Shown: positions 44,209-53,056 of the stretch, piece after piece
How the letters are laid out: every line of letters begins with the position of its first letter
Numbering within the stretch: position 1 is the first letter of the stretch
NCBI GenBank assembly: GCA_964634465.1
Contig: CAZWLY010000019.1
Location: 71 to 64,070 of the forward strand
Direction: 5' to 3'
DNA length: 64,000 nt
Source: an uncultured Thermodesulfobacteriota bacterium
Lineage (GTDB): Bacteria; Desulfobacterota; Desulfarculia; G963662305
The notes under the pieces: generated by a model
Seen by the model: only the letters and a program-made list of their open reading frames with translations
Database searches by the model: none
What the model was told of the DNA's origin: nothing
Position numbers and translations under genes: made by a program

Positions 44209-44636
44209 GGTGAGCCCAGAAGCGACGGATCGCTTGCGGTTATCGCAACGACCGCCCCCTCTTCAATTGTAGCCCAGTTTTTGCCTTTCGCTTCTTGCTC
44301 GCCCCACAATGACGCCGAAGCTTGAATATATAATAACCGATTCGCAGGCCAGAGAAAACCGGGTTCGGGGCGCTTGGTTCGGGACCGGGAGGTGCAGTGC
44401 AGGCCAAGCGCCGTCGAGGTCGAGCCGCCGCCGGCCGGACGAGAGCGGCGAGGGTTCCTGGCGACGCCGGATTCGGATCGGGTCGGATTCGACCCTCAAG
44501 GGCGCAACCACACCATGTTGTGGTCGTTTCCGCGGCGAGGCCTAGCCGGCGATTCTCCTTGACATCGTTTTTTGCTATGGTCTACTTTATCTGCTCGTAT
44601 TGGGTGAATGGCCTGTCATCTTTTGGGCCGGAGCCT

Positions 44637-44654: not shown

Positions 44655-44713
44655 TCACGGCGCCAGCGTCCGTGATCGGTCGGTGTGGATCTTCGATAAG
44701 GAGGGGCGCTGAA

Positions 44714-46267
44714 GTGGCCTTTGAGATCCCGACTATCAATTATTCCGGCGCCATCGAGAAGGTGGTGCTTGGTCAGGGCGAGAAGGCCCTGACCCTTGGT
44801 GGTGAGAATTGCTACCCCTTCCACGACTGGGAGGGCGAACTGCCCAACCGGCCGGTGATCGGCATGGAGGTCTGGGACGTCGAGCCCGAGGACTGGCCGG
44901 CCTGGCTGACCGAGCCCTTCGAGGGCGTGCTGGGCGATCCGGTCGCCTGGGCCAAGAAGTGCGTCGAGTTCGGGGCCGAGTTCATCTGCCTGAGTCTGGT
45001 CTCGACCGATCCCAACGACCAGGACGCCGACCCCGAGTCGGCCGCCAAGACGGCGGTCAAGGTGGTCGAGGCGGTGGACGTGCCGGTGGTGGTCTGGGGT
45101 ACGGCCAATCCCGACAAGGACGCCGCGGTCCTGGCCGCCGTGGCCGAGGCCTGCCAGGATTATGATTTGAGCCTGGGGCCGGTCGAAGAGAAAAACCACA
45201 AGCAGGTCGGCGCCCAGGCGCTGGCTTACAAGCACGCCATCATCGCCAATAGCCCCATCGACGTCAACCTGGCCAAACAACTGAACATTCTCTTGGGTAA
45301 CCTCGGAGTGGGTCTGGACAAGATCGTCATCGATCCGACCACCGGCTCCCTGGGCTACGGCATGGAGTACTGCTACTCGGTCATGGAGCGGATCAGGATG
45401 GCCGCACTGACTCAGGACGACGACAAGCTGGTTTCGCCCATCATCAACGTCGTCGGCCCCGAGGTCTGGAAGGCCAAAGAGGCCAAGCTGGGCGCCGACG
45501 AGGCCCCCGAGCTGGGCGATCCCTTCGCCCGGGCGGTGCTGATGGAGGCCATCACCGCCGCGTCGATGCTTTTGGCCGGCAGCGACATGCTGGTCTTGCG
45601 CCATCCGGAGACGGTCAAGCTGATCAACGCCTACCTCGACCTGATGATCGACGGCGGCGCTTCCAAGGCCGCCGAGCGCCGGCCCGGCGACACGGCCGCG
45701 CCCGAGGCCGAGGCCGCTCCCAGGGAGGAGGCCGCGGTGGCCGAGGCCAAGCCCAAGCCCAAGCCGGCCGCCAAGAAGGCCGCTCCCAAGAAGCCCGAGA
45801 AGAAGGCCGCGCCGAAAGCCGAAGCCAAGCCGGCTCCGGCCAAGAAAGAGCCCGGGAAGAAGCCCGAAGAAGCCAAGGCGGCCGAGGAGGCCAAAGCGGC
45901 TGAAGAGGCCAAGGCGGCTGAAGAGGCGAGGGCCAAGGCGGAAGCCGAAGCCAAGGCCAAGGCCGAGGCCGAGGCCAAGGCGGCCGAGGAGGCCAAGGCC
46001 AAGGCCGAAGCCGAAGCCAAGGCCAAGGCCGAGGCCGAGGCCAAAGCCAAGGCGGAAGCCGAAGCCAAAGCCAAGGCCGAAGCCAAGGCCAAGGCGGAAG
46101 AGGAGCTGGAGGCCTTGAGGGCCAAGCGCCGGGCCGAGCGCATGAAGGCGCTCGAGGAGAGAGGGGAAGCCGGTCCGGAGATTCCCAAGACGGCGGCCGC
46201 CGAGCAGTTGCCGCGTCTGGTCAAGATGGCCAGGCAGCTCGATCGGGTCCATCGTCGCAACCGGTAA
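44714..46267 (+). CDS. acsD: Corrinoid Fe-S protein small subunit with a long Ala/Glu/Lys/Pro-rich C-terminal extension
   Basis: AAGGAGG + GTG 44714; SPIDVNLAKQLN, IDPTTG.LGYG.EY, MERIR.AAL, LRHP; then about 200 aa of low-complexity tail. Confidence 0.93.
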   Translation: MAFEIPTINYSGAIEKVVLGQGEKALTLGGENCYPFHDWEGELPNRPVIGMEVWDVEPEDWPAWLTEPFEGVLGDPVAWAKKCVEFGAEFICLSLVSTDPNDQDADPESAAKTAVKVVEAVDVPVVVWGTANPDKDAAVLAAVAEACQDYDLSLGPVEEKNHKQVGAQALAYKHAIIANSPIDVNLAKQLNILLGNLGVGLDKIVIDPTTGSLGYGMEYCYSVMERIRMAALTQDDDKLVSPIINVVGPEVWKAKEAKLGADEAPELGDPFARAVLMEAITAASMLLAGSDMLVLRHPETVKLINAYLDLMIDGGASKAAERRPGDTAAPEAEAAPREEAAVAEAKPKPKPAAKKAAPKKPEKKAAPKAEAKPAPAKKEPGKKPEEAKAAEEAKAAEEAKAAEEARAKAEAEAKAKAEAEAKAAEEAKAKAEAEAKAKAEAEAKAKAEAEAKAKAEAKAKAEEELEALRAKRRAERMKALEERGEAGPEIPKTAAAEQLPRLVKMARQLDRVHRRNR

Positions 46268-46278
46268 GGAGGCTTCCC

Positions 46279-46401
46279 ATGGCCAAGAAGACCAGCAAGG
46301 CTAAGGCGGTCAAGAAGAAAGCGACTCCGGCCGAGGTTCAAATGAGCCTGGCCGACAAGTTGGCCGCCAACCTTGAGAGAGTCCACCGGCGCAACCGGTA
46401 A
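46279..46401 (+). CDS. Unannotated 40-aa protein MAKKTSKAKAVKKKATPAEVQMSLADKLAANLERVHRRNR
   Basis: AAGGAGG RBS (46266-46272). Its C-terminus matches the AcsD C-terminus LDRVHRRNR while using different codons. Confidence 0.8.
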   Translation: MAKKTSKAKAVKKKATPAEVQMSLADKLAANLERVHRRNR

Positions 46402-46407
46402 TGTAAG

Positions 46408-46432
46408 ACGGGGCCCTTAGAGCCCCGTTTTT
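46408..46432 (+). terminator. Intra-operon hairpin with U-tract between the small ORF and cooS
   Basis: ACGGGGC-CCTTAGA-GCCCCGT-TTTT. Confidence 0.55.
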
Positions 46433-46454: not shown

Positions 46455-48470
46455 ATGGCGGAAGAGAAAAAGGCTGCTGCTGAAGCGGCTAAGCCTAAAG
46501 CTAAGAGGCCAGTGGATCAGCTCACCGTCGATCCGGCGACCAAAGAGATGATTCTCAAGTCCCGGGCCGAAAATATCGAGACCATTTTCGACCGGGCCGA
46601 GACCATCAAGCCCTGCCCCATCGGCGCCACCGGCATCTGCTGCAAGATGTGCGCCCAGGGGCCGTGTCGGATCACGGCCAAGAACCCGATCGGCATGTGC
46701 GGCGCCACCCCCGAGACCATCGCCGCCCGCAACTTCGCCCGGATGGTGGCCGCCGGCGCGGCCGCTCACTCCGATCACGGTCGCGGCGTGGCCGAGACCT
46801 TCCTGGCCGCCGCCAGGCGGGAGACCAGCGACTACACCATCAAGGACGAGCTCAAACTGCGCGAGATCGCTCCCTACTTCGGCGTCGATATCACCGTCAC
46901 CGACGAAGAGGGCAACGAGCTGGATCGCGACATGTGGGAGATCGCCGAGGAGGTCGGCGTCAAGGCCCTGGCCGAGTGGGGCCGGCAGGAGGGCGAAATC
47001 GCCTACGCCAAGCGCGCGCCCGAGGCCCGCTACGAGCTGTGGCAGAAGCTGGACGTCGTTCCCCGGGGCGTCGACCGCGAGATAGTCGAGATCATGCACC
47101 GGACCCACATGGGCGTCGATCAGGACTACAAGAACCTGATCAAGCAGTGCTCCAGGGCCGCCCTGGCCGACGGCTGGGCCGGCTCGATGATCGCCACCGA
47201 CCTCCAGGACATCATGTTCGGCACGCCCTACCCCAACCAGGGCAACATCAACCTGGGCTGCCTGGAGGAGAACTCGGTCAACATCATCGTCCACGGCCAC
47301 GAGCCGCTTCTCTCCGAGATGATCGTCATCGCCGCCCAGGATCCGGAGATGGTCGAGTACGCCAAGGAGAAGGGCGCCGACGGCATCGTCCTGGCCGGGA
47401 TGTGCTGCACCGCCAACGAGATCCTGCAGCGCCACGGCGTGCCCATCGCCGGCAACTATCTCCAGCAGGAACTGGCCCTGATCACCGGTGCGGTGGACGC
47501 GATGGTGGTCGATGTCCAGTGCATCATGGAGAACCTGGCCAACATCGCCCAGTGCTACCACACCAAGATCATCACCACCAACCCGCGGGCGATGATCGCC
47601 TCCGGCGAGACGCTGCACATCGAGTTCGACGAGCATCACGCCCTTGAAGACGCCAAGCGCATCGTCAAGGAGGCCATCGACAACTTTGGCAATCGCAAGG
47701 CCGAGGTGATGATCCCCAATTACAAGGAGCGCCAGGTGGTCGGCTTCTCGGTCGAGGCCATCAACTACCACCTGGGCGGCACCTTCCGCGGTTCGTTCGT
47801 GCCCTTGAACGACAACATCATGAACGGCCGCATCAGGGGCATTGCCGGCGTGGTCGGCTGCAACAACGCCCGGACCCTGCACGACAACGCCCACCTGACC
47901 TTGATCAAAGAACTGTTGAAGAAAGACGTCATCGTGCTCACCACCGGCTGCTCGGCCATGGCCTGCGGCAAGGCCGGTCTCCTGACCCCCGAGGCAGCCC
48001 ACGTCTACTGCGGCGCCGGGCTGGCCGAGGTCTGCGAGACGGTCGGCATCCCGCCGGTGTTGCACATGGGCTCTTGCGTGGACAACTCCCGCATCCTTTT
48101 GGCCGCCACGGAGGTGGTCAAGGCCGGCGGATTGGGCAAGGACATCTCCGACCTGCCCGCGGCCGGATGCGCTCCCGAGTGGATGAGTGAGAAGGCTATC
48201 TCCATTGGCCACTACTTCGTCGCCTCGGGCGTCTACACCGTCTTCGGCGTCCACCTGCCGGTCACCGGCGCCCCGGTCTTCCAGGATTATCTGTTCAAGG
48301 GCCTGGAGAGCGTCTACGGCGGGATGTGGGATCTGGTGGAAGACCCCTACGAGATGGCCCGAAAGATGATCGCCCACATTGACAAGAAGCGCGCCGCCCT
48401 GGGTCTGGACAAGGGCAAAGAGCGGGTGCTCATGGATATGGCCGACCGGCAGAAGCTGGACGCTGCTTAA
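46455..48470 (+). CDS. cooS: Anaerobic Ni-CO dehydrogenase catalytic subunit
   Basis: CCKMCAQGPC, AAHSDHGR, VHGHEP, GMCCTANE, DVQC, GCNN, HMGSCVDNSR, MSEKA. Confidence 0.97.
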   Translation: MAEEKKAAAEAAKPKAKRPVDQLTVDPATKEMILKSRAENIETIFDRAETIKPCPIGATGICCKMCAQGPCRITAKNPIGMCGATPETIAARNFARMVAAGAAAHSDHGRGVAETFLAAARRETSDYTIKDELKLREIAPYFGVDITVTDEEGNELDRDMWEIAEEVGVKALAEWGRQEGEIAYAKRAPEARYELWQKLDVVPRGVDREIVEIMHRTHMGVDQDYKNLIKQCSRAALADGWAGSMIATDLQDIMFGTPYPNQGNINLGCLEENSVNIIVHGHEPLLSEMIVIAAQDPEMVEYAKEKGADGIVLAGMCCTANEILQRHGVPIAGNYLQQELALITGAVDAMVVDVQCIMENLANIAQCYHTKIITTNPRAMIASGETLHIEFDEHHALEDAKRIVKEAIDNFGNRKAEVMIPNYKERQVVGFSVEAINYHLGGTFRGSFVPLNDNIMNGRIRGIAGVVGCNNARTLHDNAHLTLIKELLKKDVIVLTTGCSAMACGKAGLLTPEAAHVYCGAGLAEVCETVGIPPVLHMGSCVDNSRILLAATEVVKAGGLGKDISDLPAAGCAPEWMSEKAISIGHYFVASGVYTVFGVHLPVTGAPVFQDYLFKGLESVYGGMWDLVEDPYEMARKMIAHIDKKRAALGLDKGKERVLMDMADRQKLDAA

Positions 48471-48506: not shown

Positions 48507-50726
48507 ATGTCTAAAATGGTCGCCTTCGCCGCCATCCAGGGTGGCTACAATATCGTCTCCAAGGCCGAAGGCAAACTCAAACAGGCTCTGGAGGCCTACG
48601 GCGGCACGCAGAAGCTGGAGTTCCCCAACACCGCCTACTACCTGCCCATCATCTACTCGCTGCTGGGCATCAAGGTGGAGACGCTGGAGGACGCCCTTCC
48701 GGTCATGGAGTTCTGCCGGAAGCTCCTGCCGCCTCACATAAAGAATGTCAACTACACCCCCTATCTCGGGCCCCTGCTGGACGCGGGCATGGCCGCGCTC
48801 TTCGCCGAGGAGATCGTCGAAGCCATCCGCTACATCGAGGACCCGGATTTCTACTACGTCTCCGAGGAGTGCGACCCGGAGAACGGCAAGCTCTGGCTGG
48901 GCGCCGCCGAGGACACCATCTTCCGTAAGCGCGGCGTGGAGTTCGTCGACGGCACCGCTCCCGGCTTCGCCGCCATCGTCGGCGCGGCCCCCGATCCGGA
49001 GACGGCCAAGATGATCGCCGAAGAGTATCAGCAGAAGATGCTCTACGTCTTCATGTGCGCCAACCAGAACGGGACCACCTTCGCCGAGCAGTTGGTCGAG
49101 GCCGGCGTCCAGGTCGGCTGGAACACCCGCCTGGTGCCGTTCTCCCCCGACATCTCCGGCGCCGTGTTCGCCCTCGGCTTCGCCAACCGGGCGGCCATGG
49201 CCTTCGGCGGCATCGAGCCCGGCGACTACAAGCGGATCCTGCTCTACAACAAGGACAGGATCTTCGCCTTCGTCAACGCCTTGGGCGACGTCAACGCCGA
49301 GTGGGCCGCCAACGCCGCCGGCTGCGTCAACTGGGGCTTCCCGACCCTGGCCGATACTGACATCCCCGAGATTTTGCCCACCGGCGTGTGCACCTACGAA
49401 CACGTGGTGGCCAACGTCAAGCACGAGGAGCTGGTCTCCAAATCGACCGAGATTCGGGGCCTGAAGGTCACGGTGACCAAAGTCGACGTTCCCACCGCCT
49501 ACGGCCCGGCCTTCGAGGGCGAGCGCATCCGCAAGGACGATCTCGTCGTCGAGATGGGCGGCGGCAAGACCCAGGCCGTCGAGCTGTGCCAGATGGCCGA
49601 GATGGACGAGATCAACGACGGCGACATCAACGTCTACGGTCCCGACATCACCGACCTGCCTGAGAAGCCTTTCCGCCTGCCCTTGGCCATCGAGGTCAAG
49701 GTGGCCGGCCGCAAGATGCAGGAGGACTTCGAGCCCATCCTGGAGCGGCAAATTCACCACCTGATCAACTACGCCCAGGGCATCATGCACATCGGACAGC
49801 GCGACATCGCCTGGATCCGCATCGGCCAGGGCGCGCTGGACAAGGGCTTCGAACTCAGGCACATCGGCCAGATAATCCACGACATGTACCACAAGGACTT
49901 CGGCGCGGTCCTCGACAAGGTCGCGGTCAATCTCTACACCGAGAAGGACAAGGTGGACGAGATCACCGAGCGGGCCCGGGTCATCTACCAGACCCGCGAC
50001 GCCCGGGTCGAGGGCATGACCGACGAGGACGTGGAGACTTTCTACTCCTGCACCCTGTGCCAGTCCTTCGCCCCGTCCCACGTCTGCGTGGTTTCGCCCG
50101 AGCGGACCGGCCTGTGCGGCGCCTACAACTGGTTCGACTGCAAGGCCTCTTACGAGATCAACCCGACCGGACCCAACCAGCCGGTGGAGAAGGGTGAGGT
50201 TCTCGATCCCAAGCTGGGCCGCTTCGCCGGCGTGGACGAGTTCGTCTTCAAGGCCTCGCGCCAGAAGGTGCCGACCTACAACTTCTACTCCATCGTTCAC
50301 GATCCGATGACTACCTGCGGTTGCTGCGAGTGCATCGCCGCCGTGCTGCCGATGTGCAACGGCGTCATGACCGTCAACCGCGACTACACCGGCGAGACGC
50401 CCTGCGGCATGAAGTTCACCACCCTGGCCGGCGTCATGGGCGGCGGACAGACCTCGCCGGGCTTCGTCGGCCACTCCAAGTACAACATCATCCAGCGCAA
50501 GTTCATCGCCGGTGACGGCGGGCTGTTGCGGATGGTGTGGATGCCCAAGATGCTCAAGGAGGAGCTCAAGGACAAGCTCATCGCCCGCGGCGAGGAGTTG
50601 GGCGTACCCGATCTCTACGACAAGATCGCCGACGAGACGGTGGGCACCGACGAAGCGACCGTCTATGAGTGGCTCCAGAAGGTCGGCCATCCGGCCCTGG
50701 AGATGGAGCCCATTATCAGCGAATAG
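48507..50726 (+). CDS. acsB: Acetyl-CoA synthase
   Basis: FPNTAYYLP, FYSCTLCQSFAP.HVC, PER.GLCGA, PMTTCGCCEC. Confidence 0.97.
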   Translation: MSKMVAFAAIQGGYNIVSKAEGKLKQALEAYGGTQKLEFPNTAYYLPIIYSLLGIKVETLEDALPVMEFCRKLLPPHIKNVNYTPYLGPLLDAGMAALFAEEIVEAIRYIEDPDFYYVSEECDPENGKLWLGAAEDTIFRKRGVEFVDGTAPGFAAIVGAAPDPETAKMIAEEYQQKMLYVFMCANQNGTTFAEQLVEAGVQVGWNTRLVPFSPDISGAVFALGFANRAAMAFGGIEPGDYKRILLYNKDRIFAFVNALGDVNAEWAANAAGCVNWGFPTLADTDIPEILPTGVCTYEHVVANVKHEELVSKSTEIRGLKVTVTKVDVPTAYGPAFEGERIRKDDLVVEMGGGKTQAVELCQMAEMDEINDGDINVYGPDITDLPEKPFRLPLAIEVKVAGRKMQEDFEPILERQIHHLINYAQGIMHIGQRDIAWIRIGQGALDKGFELRHIGQIIHDMYHKDFGAVLDKVAVNLYTEKDKVDEITERARVIYQTRDARVEGMTDEDVETFYSCTLCQSFAPSHVCVVSPERTGLCGAYNWFDCKASYEINPTGPNQPVEKGEVLDPKLGRFAGVDEFVFKASRQKVPTYNFYSIVHDPMTTCGCCECIAAVLPMCNGVMTVNRDYTGETPCGMKFTTLAGVMGGGQTSPGFVGHSKYNIIQRKFIAGDGGLLRMVWMPKMLKEELKDKLIARGEELGVPDLYDKIADETVGTDEATVYEWLQKVGHPALEMEPIISE

Positions 50727-50783
50727 CCCGAAGCGCCTCCCCCCGGCTTCGGGGAGAGGCTTTTGAGCAACAAGGAGTTTGCC

Positions 50784-52127
50784 ATGGGCCTGACCGGTAT
50801 TCAGATTTTCAAATTGCTGCCCAAAACAAACTGCGGCGAGTGCGGCACTCCGACCTGTTTGGCTTTCGCCATGAATTTGGCCGCCGGCAAGGCCGAGCTG
50901 GACGCCTGCCCCTACGTCTCCGACGAAGCCCGGGAGCAACTGTCCGAGGCTTCGGCCCCGCCGATTCGCTCGGTGGTCATCGGCGCCGGCCAATCGGAGG
51001 TCAAGCCGGGCGGCGAGACGGTGCTGTTCCGCCACGAGAAGACTTTCTACAACCCTTGCGCCCTGGCTATGCTGGTCACGCCGGAGACGCCCAACCTGGA
51101 CCTCGAAATCGGCTGGTTCAACGCCATGAAGTACGACCGGGTGGGGCTGACGCTTCGTCCCGAGATGTTCTGCATCAAGGACACCGGCGACGCGGCCGCC
51201 TTTGAGGCCCTGGTCGACAAGATCGTGGCCGAGACCGACGCCTCGATGTGCCTGATGAGCGAGAGCGTGGACGCCTTGAAGACGGTGGCCGAGAAGACCA
51301 AGCAGTACCGGCCGCTTCTCTACGCCGCCACCAAGGACAACGTCGAGGACATGGGCGGTTTGGCCAAGGAGCTGAACCTGCCGTTGGTGGTCAAGGGCGA
51401 GGGCCTGGAAGAGGTCATCGGCTTGACCAAGAAGCTGACCGAGATGGGCCTCAAGGACCTGGTCATCGACTCGGGCGCCCGGGAGCTCAAGGCCGCCTTC
51501 ATCGACTCGGTGGCCATGCGCCGGGCAGCTCTCCTGGAGCAAAACCGCGACCTGGGCTTCCCGTCCATCGTCTTCCCGGCCGAGATGACCGACGACTACC
51601 TGGAGGAAGCGGTCATCGCCTCGACCTTCGTGGCCAAGTACGGCGGCATCGTCGTCCTGTCCACGTTCAGGGGCGAGAACGTCTTCCCGCTTCTGCTCCA
51701 GCGGCTCAACCTCTACACCGACCCGCAGCGGCCGATGGTGGTCGAGCAGGGCATCTACGAGATCGGCAACCCCGGTCCGGAGTCCCCGGTGCTGGTCACC
51801 TCCAACTTCTCGCTGACCTACTTCATCGTCTCCGGCGAGGTCGAGTCGTCCAAGGTGCCGGCCTGGTTGATGATCATGGACACCGAGGGCCTGTCCGTGC
51901 TGACCGCCTGGGCGGCCGGCAAGTTCGTCGGTGACGCGGTGGGCATGTTCGTCAAGAAGAGCGGCATCGAGGAGAGGGTCAAGCACAAGTCGATCATCAT
52001 CCCCGGCTACGCCGCGGCCATCGCCGGCGACATGGAGGAGGAGCTGCCCGGCTGGAACGTGATGATCGGCCCGCGCGAGGCGGCCCACATACCCAAGTTT
52101 CTCAAGGAGTGGAGGCCGGCCGCTTGA
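50784..52127 (+). CDS. acsC: Corrinoid Fe-S protein large subunit
   Basis: LPKTNCGECG.PTCLAFA..CP, YTDPQRP, NFSLTYF.V, VLTAWAAGKF. Confidence 0.96.
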   Translation: MGLTGIQIFKLLPKTNCGECGTPTCLAFAMNLAAGKAELDACPYVSDEAREQLSEASAPPIRSVVIGAGQSEVKPGGETVLFRHEKTFYNPCALAMLVTPETPNLDLEIGWFNAMKYDRVGLTLRPEMFCIKDTGDAAAFEALVDKIVAETDASMCLMSESVDALKTVAEKTKQYRPLLYAATKDNVEDMGGLAKELNLPLVVKGEGLEEVIGLTKKLTEMGLKDLVIDSGARELKAAFIDSVAMRRAALLEQNRDLGFPSIVFPAEMTDDYLEEAVIASTFVAKYGGIVVLSTFRGENVFPLLLQRLNLYTDPQRPMVVEQGIYEIGNPGPESPVLVTSNFSLTYFIVSGEVESSKVPAWLMIMDTEGLSVLTAWAAGKFVGDAVGMFVKKSGIEERVKHKSIIIPGYAAAIAGDMEEELPGWNVMIGPREAAHIPKFLKEWRPAA

Positions 52128-52168
52128 GGCTCGGTTTGGCCCTTAATCAGACGGATAAGGGGATTCGA

Positions 52169-53056
52169 ATGAAGATCATTGGTGAGAGCCTGAACGTTAT
52201 CAGCAAGGTTATCGGGACCGCCATGAAGGAGCGCGATCCCGGTCCGATCCAGGCCCTGGCCAAGGAGCAGAAAGAGGCCGGCGTCGACTGGATCGACATC
52301 AACCTGGGACCGGCTCGCAAGGGCGGCCCGGAGTTGATGCAGTGGATCATCCAGACGGTCCAGGAGGTCGTCCCCGATGTTCCCTTGGCCCTGGACACCT
52401 CCAACATCGAGGCCATCGAGGCCGGTCTCGAGGTCTACCAGGCCACCGAGACCAACGTGCCGCTGATCAACTCGATCATGGCTCGGCCGGAGCGCTACGA
52501 GGTGATGATCCCCATCGCGGCCAAGTACAACGCCGACGTGGTCGCCTTGATGTGGGGCCCGGAGGGCCTGCCCCGCGACGAGAACGAGCGGGCCGCCTTG
52601 GCGGTGGAGCTGCTGTACGCCATGAACGAGGCGGGCATCCCCAACGAGAAGATCTACGTTGACGGGATCACCACCCCGGTCAACATCCAGCAGCCCCAGT
52701 TGATGTCGCTGCTGGCCTTCCAGGAGATGCTCCAGGACATCGCGCCGGGGGCCAGGTCGACCAACGGTCTGTCCAACTGCTCCAACGGCGCGCCGGACCA
52801 CCTGCGGCCGATTCTGAACCAGACCTACATGGTCATGCTGGAGCGCAAGGGCATGTTTTCCTGCATCGCCGACCACGCCGACGCCCAACTGATGGCCATC
52901 GCCCGCGGCGAGAAGCCGGAGGTGGTCGAGGTCATCCACCAGGTCATGGACGGCGAGGAGCCCCAGCCCGACAGCAAGGAGCTGATCGACTACGTCAAGA
53001 CGGCCAAGGTCCTTCTGGGCCACACCCTCTACTCCGACTCCTGGTTGGAGCTCTAG
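52169..53056 (+). CDS. acsE: Methyltetrahydrofolate:corrinoid Fe-S protein methyltransferase
   Basis: IIGESLN, IDINLG, LALDTSN, INS, GLSN.SNG; last gene of the acs operon. Confidence 0.92.
   Translation: MKIIGESLNVISKVIGTAMKERDPGPIQALAKEQKEAGVDWIDINLGPARKGGPELMQWIIQTVQEVVPDVPLALDTSNIEAIEAGLEVYQATETNVPLINSIMARPERYEVMIPIAAKYNADVVALMWGPEGLPRDENERAALAVELLYAMNEAGIPNEKIYVDGITTPVNIQQPQLMSLLAFQEMLQDIAPGARSTNGLSNCSNGAPDHLRPILNQTYMVMLERKGMFSCIADHADAQLMAIARGEKPEVVEVIHQVMDGEEPQPDSKELIDYVKTAKVLLGHTLYSDSWLEL

Follow-up and report, generated by a model that had tools for sequence, protein, structure and literature searches.

The window analyzed here, a stretch of 64,000 nucleotides (nt) from contig CAZWLY010000019.1 of an uncultured Thermodesulfobacteriota bacterium of the sulfate-reducer type, carries on its plus strand, in this order, acsD, a 40-codon open reading frame (ORF), cooS, acsB, acsC and acsE, an operon for the CO dehydrogenase/acetyl-CoA synthase (CODH/ACS) and its corrinoid iron-sulfur protein (CoFeSP). 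The subject of this analysis is a short terminal module that the first two of these genes have in common. AcsD, encoded at 44714-46267, consists of a normal barrel followed by approximately 197 additional residues that end in ...LDRVHRRNR, the frame terminating with ...LVKMARQLDRVHRRNR and a TAA stop codon at 46265-46267. Eleven bases (46268-46278) separate this stop from the ATG (46279) of the small ORF, which ends in ...LERVHRRNR (LADKLAANLERVHRRNR), again followed by TAA. The layout described in the initial annotation, namely, an AcsD tail whose terminal motif is encoded a second time in a separate 40-residue ORF 11 nt further on, is thus confirmed in the sequence. The parts of AcsD and of the small ORF are the following, with AF2 denoting AlphaFold2 models, pLDDT their predicted local distance difference test score, dN/dS the ratio of nonsynonymous to synonymous substitution rates, and A1 and A2 two module alignments described below.

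44714..45676, plus strand: acsD core, the TIM-barrel small subunit of CoFeSP (residues 1-321), recognized by PF03599, NF003377, Protein Data Bank (PDB) structures and AF2.
45677..45931, plus strand: Pro/Ala/Lys-rich linker (residues 322-406, about 85), predicted to be disordered (AF2 pLDDT 34-49, no secondary structure).
45932..46162, plus strand: single long E/A/K-rich helix (residues 407-483, ~77), predicted by AF2 with pLDDT up to 93.
46178..46264, plus strand: fused module copy (residues 489-517, IPKTAAAEQLPRLVKMARQLDRVHRRNR), delineated by alignments A1 and A2, with an invariant R-x-H-x-R.
46266..46272, plus strand: AAGGAGG ribosome-binding site of the small ORF, overlapping the acsD stop, recognized in the sequence.
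46279..46401, plus strand: 40-amino-acid (aa) microprotein with a Lys-rich N terminus and a free module copy, recognized from the ORF, its relatives and dN/dS.

In the AF2 model of AcsD, which was based on a 46-row alignment, the barrel is predicted mostly with pLDDT above 90 and is followed by the disordered stretch (residues 322-403, pLDDT below 50), the long helix and, after a short break, a terminal helix (residues 494-515, pLDDT ~78). The long helix includes a conserved LxALRAKRRxER segment, the ALRAKR stretch of which is found in the tails of relatives as well. At the level of DNA, the linker (45677..45931) contains short tandem repeats, and a 66-base-pair repeat is present in 2.9 copies at 45905-46095 within the acsD tail. 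The module itself comprises ~30 residues and contains a short amphipathic helix of about 15 residues that ends in R-x-H-x-R. In alignment A2, the hydrophobic stripe of this helix, A-x-x-I-x-x-x-L-x-x-V, spans two heptads, and acidic residues (D/E) are conserved at three positions within it.

Compared over 23 codons, the fused and free copies of the module in the window are identical at 11 of 23 residues and at 58% of bases; the proportion of synonymous differences (pS) is 0.66, and the codons of the two motif copies differ (ctc/ctt, gat/gag, cgg/aga, cat/cac, cgt/cgg). The earlier proposal that the peptide, rather than the DNA, is conserved is supported. A six-frame translation of the 3.92-Mb genome to which the window belongs contains [VIL]H[RK][RK]N[RK]-stop at just these two sites, and the module profile likewise has two matches in this genome, the AcsD end and the small ORF, so that a scan for additional C-terminal copies, which the initial annotation had proposed, returned only this pair. 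Stop-codon read-through from acsD into the small ORF was considered and ruled out because the two ORFs lie in different frames (starting at 44714 and 46279, respectively). No Pfam or NCBIfam model matches the microprotein, the only database name given to these small proteins is "hypothetical protein", and a profile search of the PDB with the module yielded a chance match only (E 0.77). As a query on its own, the 40-aa sequence retrieved only itself (1 candidate), the word index being too coarse for it, and profile searches were therefore used.

Profile A1 was built from 19 module sequences, and a trimmed profile, A2, from 35 sequences sharing the invariant R-x-H-x-R. The module so defined, hereafter the RVH type, is matched by A1 in 45 of 95 genomes of the class, whereas A2 matches 20 of 401 sampled genomes of the phylum. 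Against 1.84 billion representative proteins, A2 recovered 41 clusters at E up to 0.001, of which 38 are proteins of 30-79 aa and two are AcsD fragments bearing tails; a 622-aa repeat protein, also among the 41, was judged to be a false match. A search for longer carriers with A1 produced 11 proteins, all with PF03599, and no new fusion partner among the 8000 candidates scored. The relatives recovered in the single-protein scan are labeled Desulfobacterales, Desulfatiglandales, Thermodesulfobacteriota and Candidatus (Ca.) Adiutrix. When fused and free copies were told apart by frame length, with three of the small frames measuring 149-234 aa, the 45 genomes fell into 13 in which the module is fused to AcsD only, 26 in which it is found in small frames only and six with both. 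The position of the module is highly regular: it lies between the AcsD core and CooS in 26 of the 29 fetched loci (L021-L049), the other three consisting of two that end at contig edges and one (G056) with CooS only. In ten loci from other classes of the phylum, CooS is present in all ten and the AcsD core in nine. The usual form in family f2 is a tail-less AcsD (~328-333 aa) followed by a free 35-58-aa protein ending in ELDRVH(V/M)RxP(R/K)Y, and in the AcsD of G001, the module is followed by 28 further residues. Separately, some f2 genomes (L064-L067, from G079, G050, G026 and G065) contain a tandem acsD pair, one short and one long-tailed, and in G079 (L064, G079:C486), both cores are joined into an 865-aa AcsD-AcsD-tail-module protein.

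The small ORF could, in principle, be a relic of a partial 3' duplication of acsD, untranslated or functionless, as might be suggested by the adjacency and similarity of the two copies. However, a Shine-Dalgarno-like site precedes every small ORF shown with its start, across families. Of the 253 small-ORF pairs compared, 98 gave a usable dN/dS ratio; the median is 0.365, and the closest pairs lie at 0.04-0.41, the distant pairs being saturated and scattering up to about 1.3. Furthermore, the copies within a genome are old, with pS of 0.42-0.82 between the members of a pair. Judging from the sequences, the small ORF is a real conserved gene, given that it is the sole detected copy in 26 genomes, that its start codon and ribosome-binding site are retained across families, and that dN/dS is well below 1 in close pairs; a relic is hardly credible. 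The initial annotation had allowed for the small ORF being absent or degenerate in relatives, and it turned out to be conserved in many of them.

Family f3 yielded no match to the RVH-type profile (0 of 35), although its AcsD proteins are long-tailed. Their tails end in a variant, EYGEPRxxGVAGPDAxYIxKSLxRWRLRG (RW type), the profile of which (A7) matches 33 of the 95 genomes of the class, including 30 of the 35 in f3. Between acsD and cooS, the RW type is likewise arranged as fused and free copies, and it is found on a second enzyme: in G029 and G007, the RW-type module terminates the methyltransferase AcsE after a Pro/Glu/Lys linker; in G041, AcsE is likewise RW-tagged, as judged by position and frame; and in G043, G033 and G021, a free RW-type ORF is located downstream of acsE. 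In G087, a 1012-aa AcsD carries four tandem RW-type modules behind a single core. The AF2 model of this protein assigns pLDDT of 32-68 to the modules and ~90 to the charged helices between them, and the low values would suit motifs that fold on a partner absent from the chain. Comparison of the RVH and RW profiles with hhalign gave a probability of 39.7% and E of 3e-4 over 20 columns; this profile-profile likeness being weak, the probable kinship of the two types rests mostly on their identical placement and architecture. The view of the motif as a portable module on long arms has thus held up: the module occurs at the end of AcsD, in the variant form at the end of AcsE, four times in tandem in one AcsD, or as a free peptide. 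By the same token, AcsE, one of the docking partners initially put forward, is an unlikely one because AcsE itself can carry the tag. As a separate observation, the acsD-cooS spacers of f3 (L050 1724-2208, L068 1694-2322) are 481-625 nt long and rich in GC tandem units such as GGGCGAAAGCC, and many f3 assemblies break precisely between acsD and cooS.

Taken together, the RVH and RW types are found in 77 of the 95 genomes, and the AcsD core in 85. Among the 49 high-quality genomes, 45 carry either module type, and the four that do not are two members of genus g17 and two assemblies broken at the locus. The g17 genomes (G023 and G035, 90-92% complete) contain acsD-acsC-acsE (L063, corresponding to G023:C9), and no CooS or AcsB was found in them in searches with the proteins of the window; their AcsD has neither tail nor module. 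Tail and module are missing also from five AcsD paralog loci off the canonical operon (four stand-alone loci away from cooS and one divergent cluster), and no peptide accompanies the lone cooS paralogs of G001 and G008. Conversely, a second cluster in G056 consists of the peptide, cooS and acsB, without acsC, acsD or acsE. The occurrence of the module is limited to contexts encoding CODH/ACS, with the caveat that contexts lacking CODH/ACS are scarce (two genomes of a single genus, and five paralog loci). The G056 cluster, the module-free g17 genomes and the module-free AcsD paralogs all point the same way, suggesting that the module accompanies CODH/ACS and not the corrinoid protein in its own right.

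These observations bear directly on the possibility that the module docks on the corrinoid protein itself, that is, on AcsC or the AcsD barrel. The tag of AcsE would then leash the methyltransferase, the tag of AcsD would link CoFeSP molecules head to tail, and the free peptide would be a CoFeSP subunit. In keeping with such an arrangement, the module gene adjoins acsD in nearly all loci, the free peptide beside a tail-less AcsD resembles a split gene, and a tagged AcsE would profit most from nearness to CoFeSP. Nevertheless, the peptide-cooS-acsB cluster of G056 offers no AcsC or AcsD to dock on, the module is absent from genomes and paralogs with AcsD or AcsC but no CODH/ACS nearby, and a leash of ~200 residues would be superfluous for binding within one molecule, all of which makes docking on CoFeSP quite unlikely.

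The module is conserved, evolves under purifying selection, is portable and is tied to the acsD-cooS operon, and from this we infer docking, a docking partner and a role for the free copy. As a plausible but far from assured explanation, we tentatively favor a docking tag: the module would attach CoFeSP to a shared hub, for which CODH/ACS is the likeliest candidate, and would do the same for the methyltransferase in some lineages. If so, CoFeSP (AcsC/AcsD) would be leashed to the hub by an arm of ~85 disordered residues and a ~77-residue helix and would remain free to swing between the methyltransferase and the A-cluster. The hub would be the CODH/ACS core encoded just downstream, that is, CooS, perhaps together with AcsB, and in f3, the variant module would leash the methyltransferase AcsE likewise. 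The whole methyl/carbonyl branch might in this manner form a single loosely held supercomplex, the bacterial equivalent of archaeal acetyl-CoA decarbonylase/synthase (ACDS). The free microprotein would bind the same site as a small subunit filling those sites that are not occupied by tagged enzymes; alternatively, it might be the ancestral subunit whose helix was later captured by the enzymes. The more specific proposal that one ~30-residue helix, borne on the arms of AcsD and AcsE and by the free microprotein, plugs into CODH/ACS, with the microprotein competing for or filling sites and thereby setting the number of carriers, appears doubtful as a whole, and the competitor role of the free peptide fits poorly with the 26 genomes in which the module is found in small frames only.

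To the gene order, which favors CODH/ACS as the partner, complex prediction adds weak support. The microprotein was submitted together with CooS (residues 18-671) and the AcsB A1 domain (residues 1-306), with a separate alignment for each chain. Three runs scored 0.72, 0.00 and 0.57 (median 0.57), and the best of three controls, including one in which CooS was replaced, scored 0.00. The mark used here is reached by 58 of 80 solved complexes and by 2 of 110 mismatched pairs, and of these passes, those at 0.60 or under comprise just seven of the 80 solved complexes and both mismatches. Contact agreement between the runs was at least 0%, and the pLDDT of the partner at least 31. The prediction thus amounts to a small push towards CooS rather than a finding, and of the partners originally named, CODH/ACS is the candidate that gene order and this prediction favor.

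Several observations weigh against docking on CODH/ACS. The weakest point is posed by the 26 genomes with the module in small frames only and by the loci read in which the free peptide follows a tail-less AcsD: in such free-only lineages, a leash function is impossible because the module is not attached to AcsD. The tagged AcsE proteins and the AcsD with four modules bear the RW type, not the RVH type of the window, and extending this evidence to the window depends mainly on identical placement and architecture. Furthermore, a 390-aa protein of no known family in G011 carries tail and module outside the operon. As for the complex prediction, one of the three runs scored 0.00, and common contacts are not guaranteed among the runs; for guesses without prior likelihood, a pass of this kind is wrong in the majority of cases; and the partners offered to the microprotein were CooS and the A1 domain of AcsB only.

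A self-assembling module would have a precedent in archaea. In ACDS of Methanosarcina acetivorans, according to a preprint, a short Leu-zipper helix in the N-terminal disordered region of CdhD scaffolds the complex and was shown to form hexamers or octamers (PMC13370988). The similarity to the arrangement described here is twofold: a short helix is located in a long disordered end of the homologous small corrinoid subunit, and the job proposed for it is to hold CODH, ACS and CoFeSP together yet mobile (PMC13370988). There are differences as well. Whereas the CdhD scaffold is N-terminal, the module here is C-terminal, and no sequence likeness to the CdhD helix was seen. The CdhD helix self-assembles (PMC13370988), whereas for the module, docking on CODH/ACS is favored, as far as can be judged from sequence and models. 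Neither a free microprotein nor a tagged methyltransferase is described for archaeal ACDS in that preprint (PMC13370988).

By analogy, the module helices of AcsD, AcsE and the free peptides might bundle as a small coiled coil that oligomerizes CoFeSP and the methyltransferase, with the free peptides filling or capping the bundle and thereby setting its stoichiometry. Besides the archaeal precedent on the homologous subunit (PMC13370988), such a hub would be compatible with the two-heptad hydrophobic stripe of the module, with the joint presence of fused and free copies in six genomes, with the four tandem copies in one AcsD, and with the within-genome copies being each other's best match in four of six genomes despite their pS of 0.42-0.82. 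However, where the free peptide is the sole carrier, as in the 26 genomes with small frames only, the bundle would hold no cargo; the helix is short, at about 15 residues; and AF2 does not pack the four tandem modules against each other (pLDDT 32-68), although this last point is weak evidence. We consider a self-assembling hub unlikely.

The composition of the AcsD tail raises yet another possibility, namely, that the module is a general anchor, to the membrane, nucleic acid or a protein compartment, that directs the enzymes of the pathway to some cellular site and not to CODH/ACS. There is a compositional match between the tail and TolA (TIGR02794, E 4.7e-17), and the long Pro/Ala/Lys arm ends in an amphipathic helix bearing basic residues. 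The same kind of tail is present on the unrelated protein of G011 (G011:C1; L073 2401-3570, minus strand), a 390-aa product encoded outside the operon, with a tail and module (...PMTPANVQLTDTDKLNMMIDRTRRRR) paralogous to those of the AcsD of the same genome. No Pfam or NCBIfam family was found for this protein, and its only ESM Atlas matches, clusters resembling phage small terminases, scored 0.81-0.82, too low to serve as a lead. Contrary to what an anchor would predict, acidic residues are conserved at three positions inside the helix, which is unusual in membrane-binding helices, and the module is found in strict association with the cooS-linked operon. Shell genes are also lacking: there were no matches to the shell proteins of bacterial microcompartments (BMC; PF00936) or to encapsulin (PF04454) in the genome of the window, which is 96.7% complete, the positive controls being detected. 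A general anchor is accordingly rather improbable.

Downstream of the small ORF lies one further element of potential regulatory interest:

46405..46431 (stem 46405-46414 / 46422-46431), plus strand: GC hairpin followed by a U run, of terminator-like shape, recognized by folding.

The initial annotation had suggested that this hairpin could lead to overproduction of acsD and the microprotein relative to cooS. The shape and position of the hairpin are as described, but the regulatory part of the claim is not supported: the hairpin (minimum free energy -21.1 kcal/mol, z -1.58) is not significant, as 15 of 200 shuffled sequences fold as well, and it is not conserved in relatives, where the module ORF is often followed by GC hairpins that have neither a fixed place nor a U run. 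A terminator consensus scan listed no plus-strand site at the hairpin. Differential expression through the hairpin is possible but unsupported. In other genomes, the ribosome-binding site of cooS is embedded in a small conserved hairpin, AGAGGAGGAACCTCTNATG in f3, f6 and f7 (L052, L053, L054, L036, L043 and others) and GACTCGTTGAAAGGAGT, preceded by GCCGCCTATGAAAGGCGG, in f2 (L004, L017, L034, L041). The window does not contain this hairpin, which could be a translational control element of cooS. Six loci searched against Rfam yielded nothing at E up to 0.1.

The proximity of these elements to the module raises the question of whether the peptide acts in cis as a leader or arrest peptide: its conserved C-terminal residues would halt the ribosome on finishing acsD or the small ORF, and the stalled ribosome would control the hairpin and thereby cooS expression. 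The small ORF is located directly upstream of cooS, conservation peaks next to the stop codon, a hairpin follows within a few bases of the stop in the window (three bases) and in G001, and in other families the Shine-Dalgarno site of cooS is found within the small conserved hairpin. On the other hand, there is no fixed short distance between the module stop and the cooS start, which are 53-625 nt apart among the loci listed, and the place and form of the hairpin are not conserved, that of the window not being significant. Moreover, the module need not be terminal, being internal, four times, in one protein and followed by 28 residues in the AcsD of G001, and it can end AcsE or follow acsE, where cooS is not the next gene. 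An arrest peptide is therefore highly improbable.

The remaining features of the operon are the ribosome-binding site of acsD and the genes downstream of the small ORF:

44698..44704, plus strand: AAGGAGG ribosome-binding site of acsD, 9 nt ahead of the GTG start, recognized in the sequence.
46455..48470, plus strand: cooS/acsA, CODH subunit and the favored putative docking partner (PF03063, E 1.8e-173; gene order; complex prediction).
48507..50726, plus strand: acsB, acetyl-CoA synthase (PF19436, PF03598, PF18537).
50763..52127, plus strand: acsC, large subunit of CoFeSP (PF03599, PF04060).
52109..53056, plus strand: acsE, methyltransferase, tail-less here (PF00809).

The most likely start of acsD is the GTG at 44714 (MAFEIPTINYSG) because relatives begin at the same residue, with GTG or TTG, and the solved AcsD chains align from residue 1. 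The TTG at 44600, the choice of the ORF list, is disfavored on both counts. Among the acsD loci listed, 40 of 43 ORFs start with GTG or TTG, not ATG. The assignment of the gene is secure by family models, solved barrels and operon context alike: the core matches PF03599 over aa 16-256 (E 9.8e-40, 136.9 bits against a cut-off of 24.8), the protein scores 557.6 bits with NF003377 (cut-off 527), residues 1-312 match 4djd_D, 2h9a_B, 4c1n_B and 9fzy_E in the PDB (E 8e-80 to 4e-77), and the gene is in one operon with acsC, acsE, cooS and acsB. Elsewhere in the same genome, a second CooS paralog (56% identity) is encoded on another contig (G000:C26:3616-5541). The N termini of CooS consist of ~20 Lys/Glu/Ala-rich, poorly conserved residues followed by a conserved VDPAT motif (32 of 32 sequences; window 46455-46520, L074-L103), and recall the disordered N terminus of CdhA discussed for archaeal ACDS (PMC13370988).

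Canonical bacterial AcsD proteins (Moorella 4DJD, Carboxydothermus 2H9A/2YCL/4C1N, Clostridium autoethanogenum 9FZY) have a homologous barrel and the same operon partners. Unlike the AcsD of the window, however, the canonical chains are tail-less, being 309-323 aa long and aligning to residues 1-312, in agreement with the initial statement that model AcsD proteins have no such tail. For the acetogen structure, a separate CoFeSP protein was mixed with CODH/ACS, and ACS is described as letting go of CoFeSP once the reaction is over (10.1101/2024.08.05.606187). Closer to the protein of the window is the delta-subunit subfamily NF003377 of NCBIfam (PRK04452.1-3), the 432-position model of which extends to residue 424 of the window AcsD, and long-tailed AcsD proteins have thus already been catalogued; this model stops short of the module, and its name is silent on the tail.

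Short helical motifs on flexible linkers, sometimes tandemly repeated, recruit enzymes in many other settings, including EPYC1, CsoS2, CcmM, BMC encapsulation peptides and the docking domains of polyketide synthases (PKS) and nonribosomal peptide synthetases (NRPS). In contrast to these sticker-and-linker scaffolds and docking helices, to which there is no sequence relation, the tag described here is shared by enzymes that act consecutively in a single pathway and exists as a separately encoded free peptide as well, and compartment shell genes were not found in this genome. The module was considered undescribed from the outset, and this agrees with the lack of a Pfam or NCBIfam model and with our finding no description of the tail module or the microprotein in the full-text literature, supplements lying outside that search. 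The genome paper of Desulfobacterium (Db.) autotrophicum contains no text on acsD or the corrinoid protein. A putative terminal docking or scaffold motif that is common to two enzymes and also encoded as a free microprotein appears to be a new and unusual feature.

It is not yet settled how reactive methyl and carbonyl groups move among CODH, ACS, corrinoid protein and methyltransferase. The corrinoid protein of acetogens is treated as an entity of its own that binds and leaves, whereas in methanogens, all components are united in one 2 MDa complex, the scaffold of which was reportedly described only in 2026. The organisms with the module described here often run the pathway in reverse, oxidizing acetate. 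A shared tag on two enzymes, together with an unannotated microprotein in most CODH/ACS operons of the class, points to a third solution. The small ORF represents a gene missing from the annotation of these operons, and a 30-residue peptide is a cheap and concrete handle on the docking partner and on supercomplex formation. If docking on CODH/ACS is correct, the microprotein would be a small subunit or a regulator, so far unrecognized, in a carbon-fixation machinery that ranks among the oldest.

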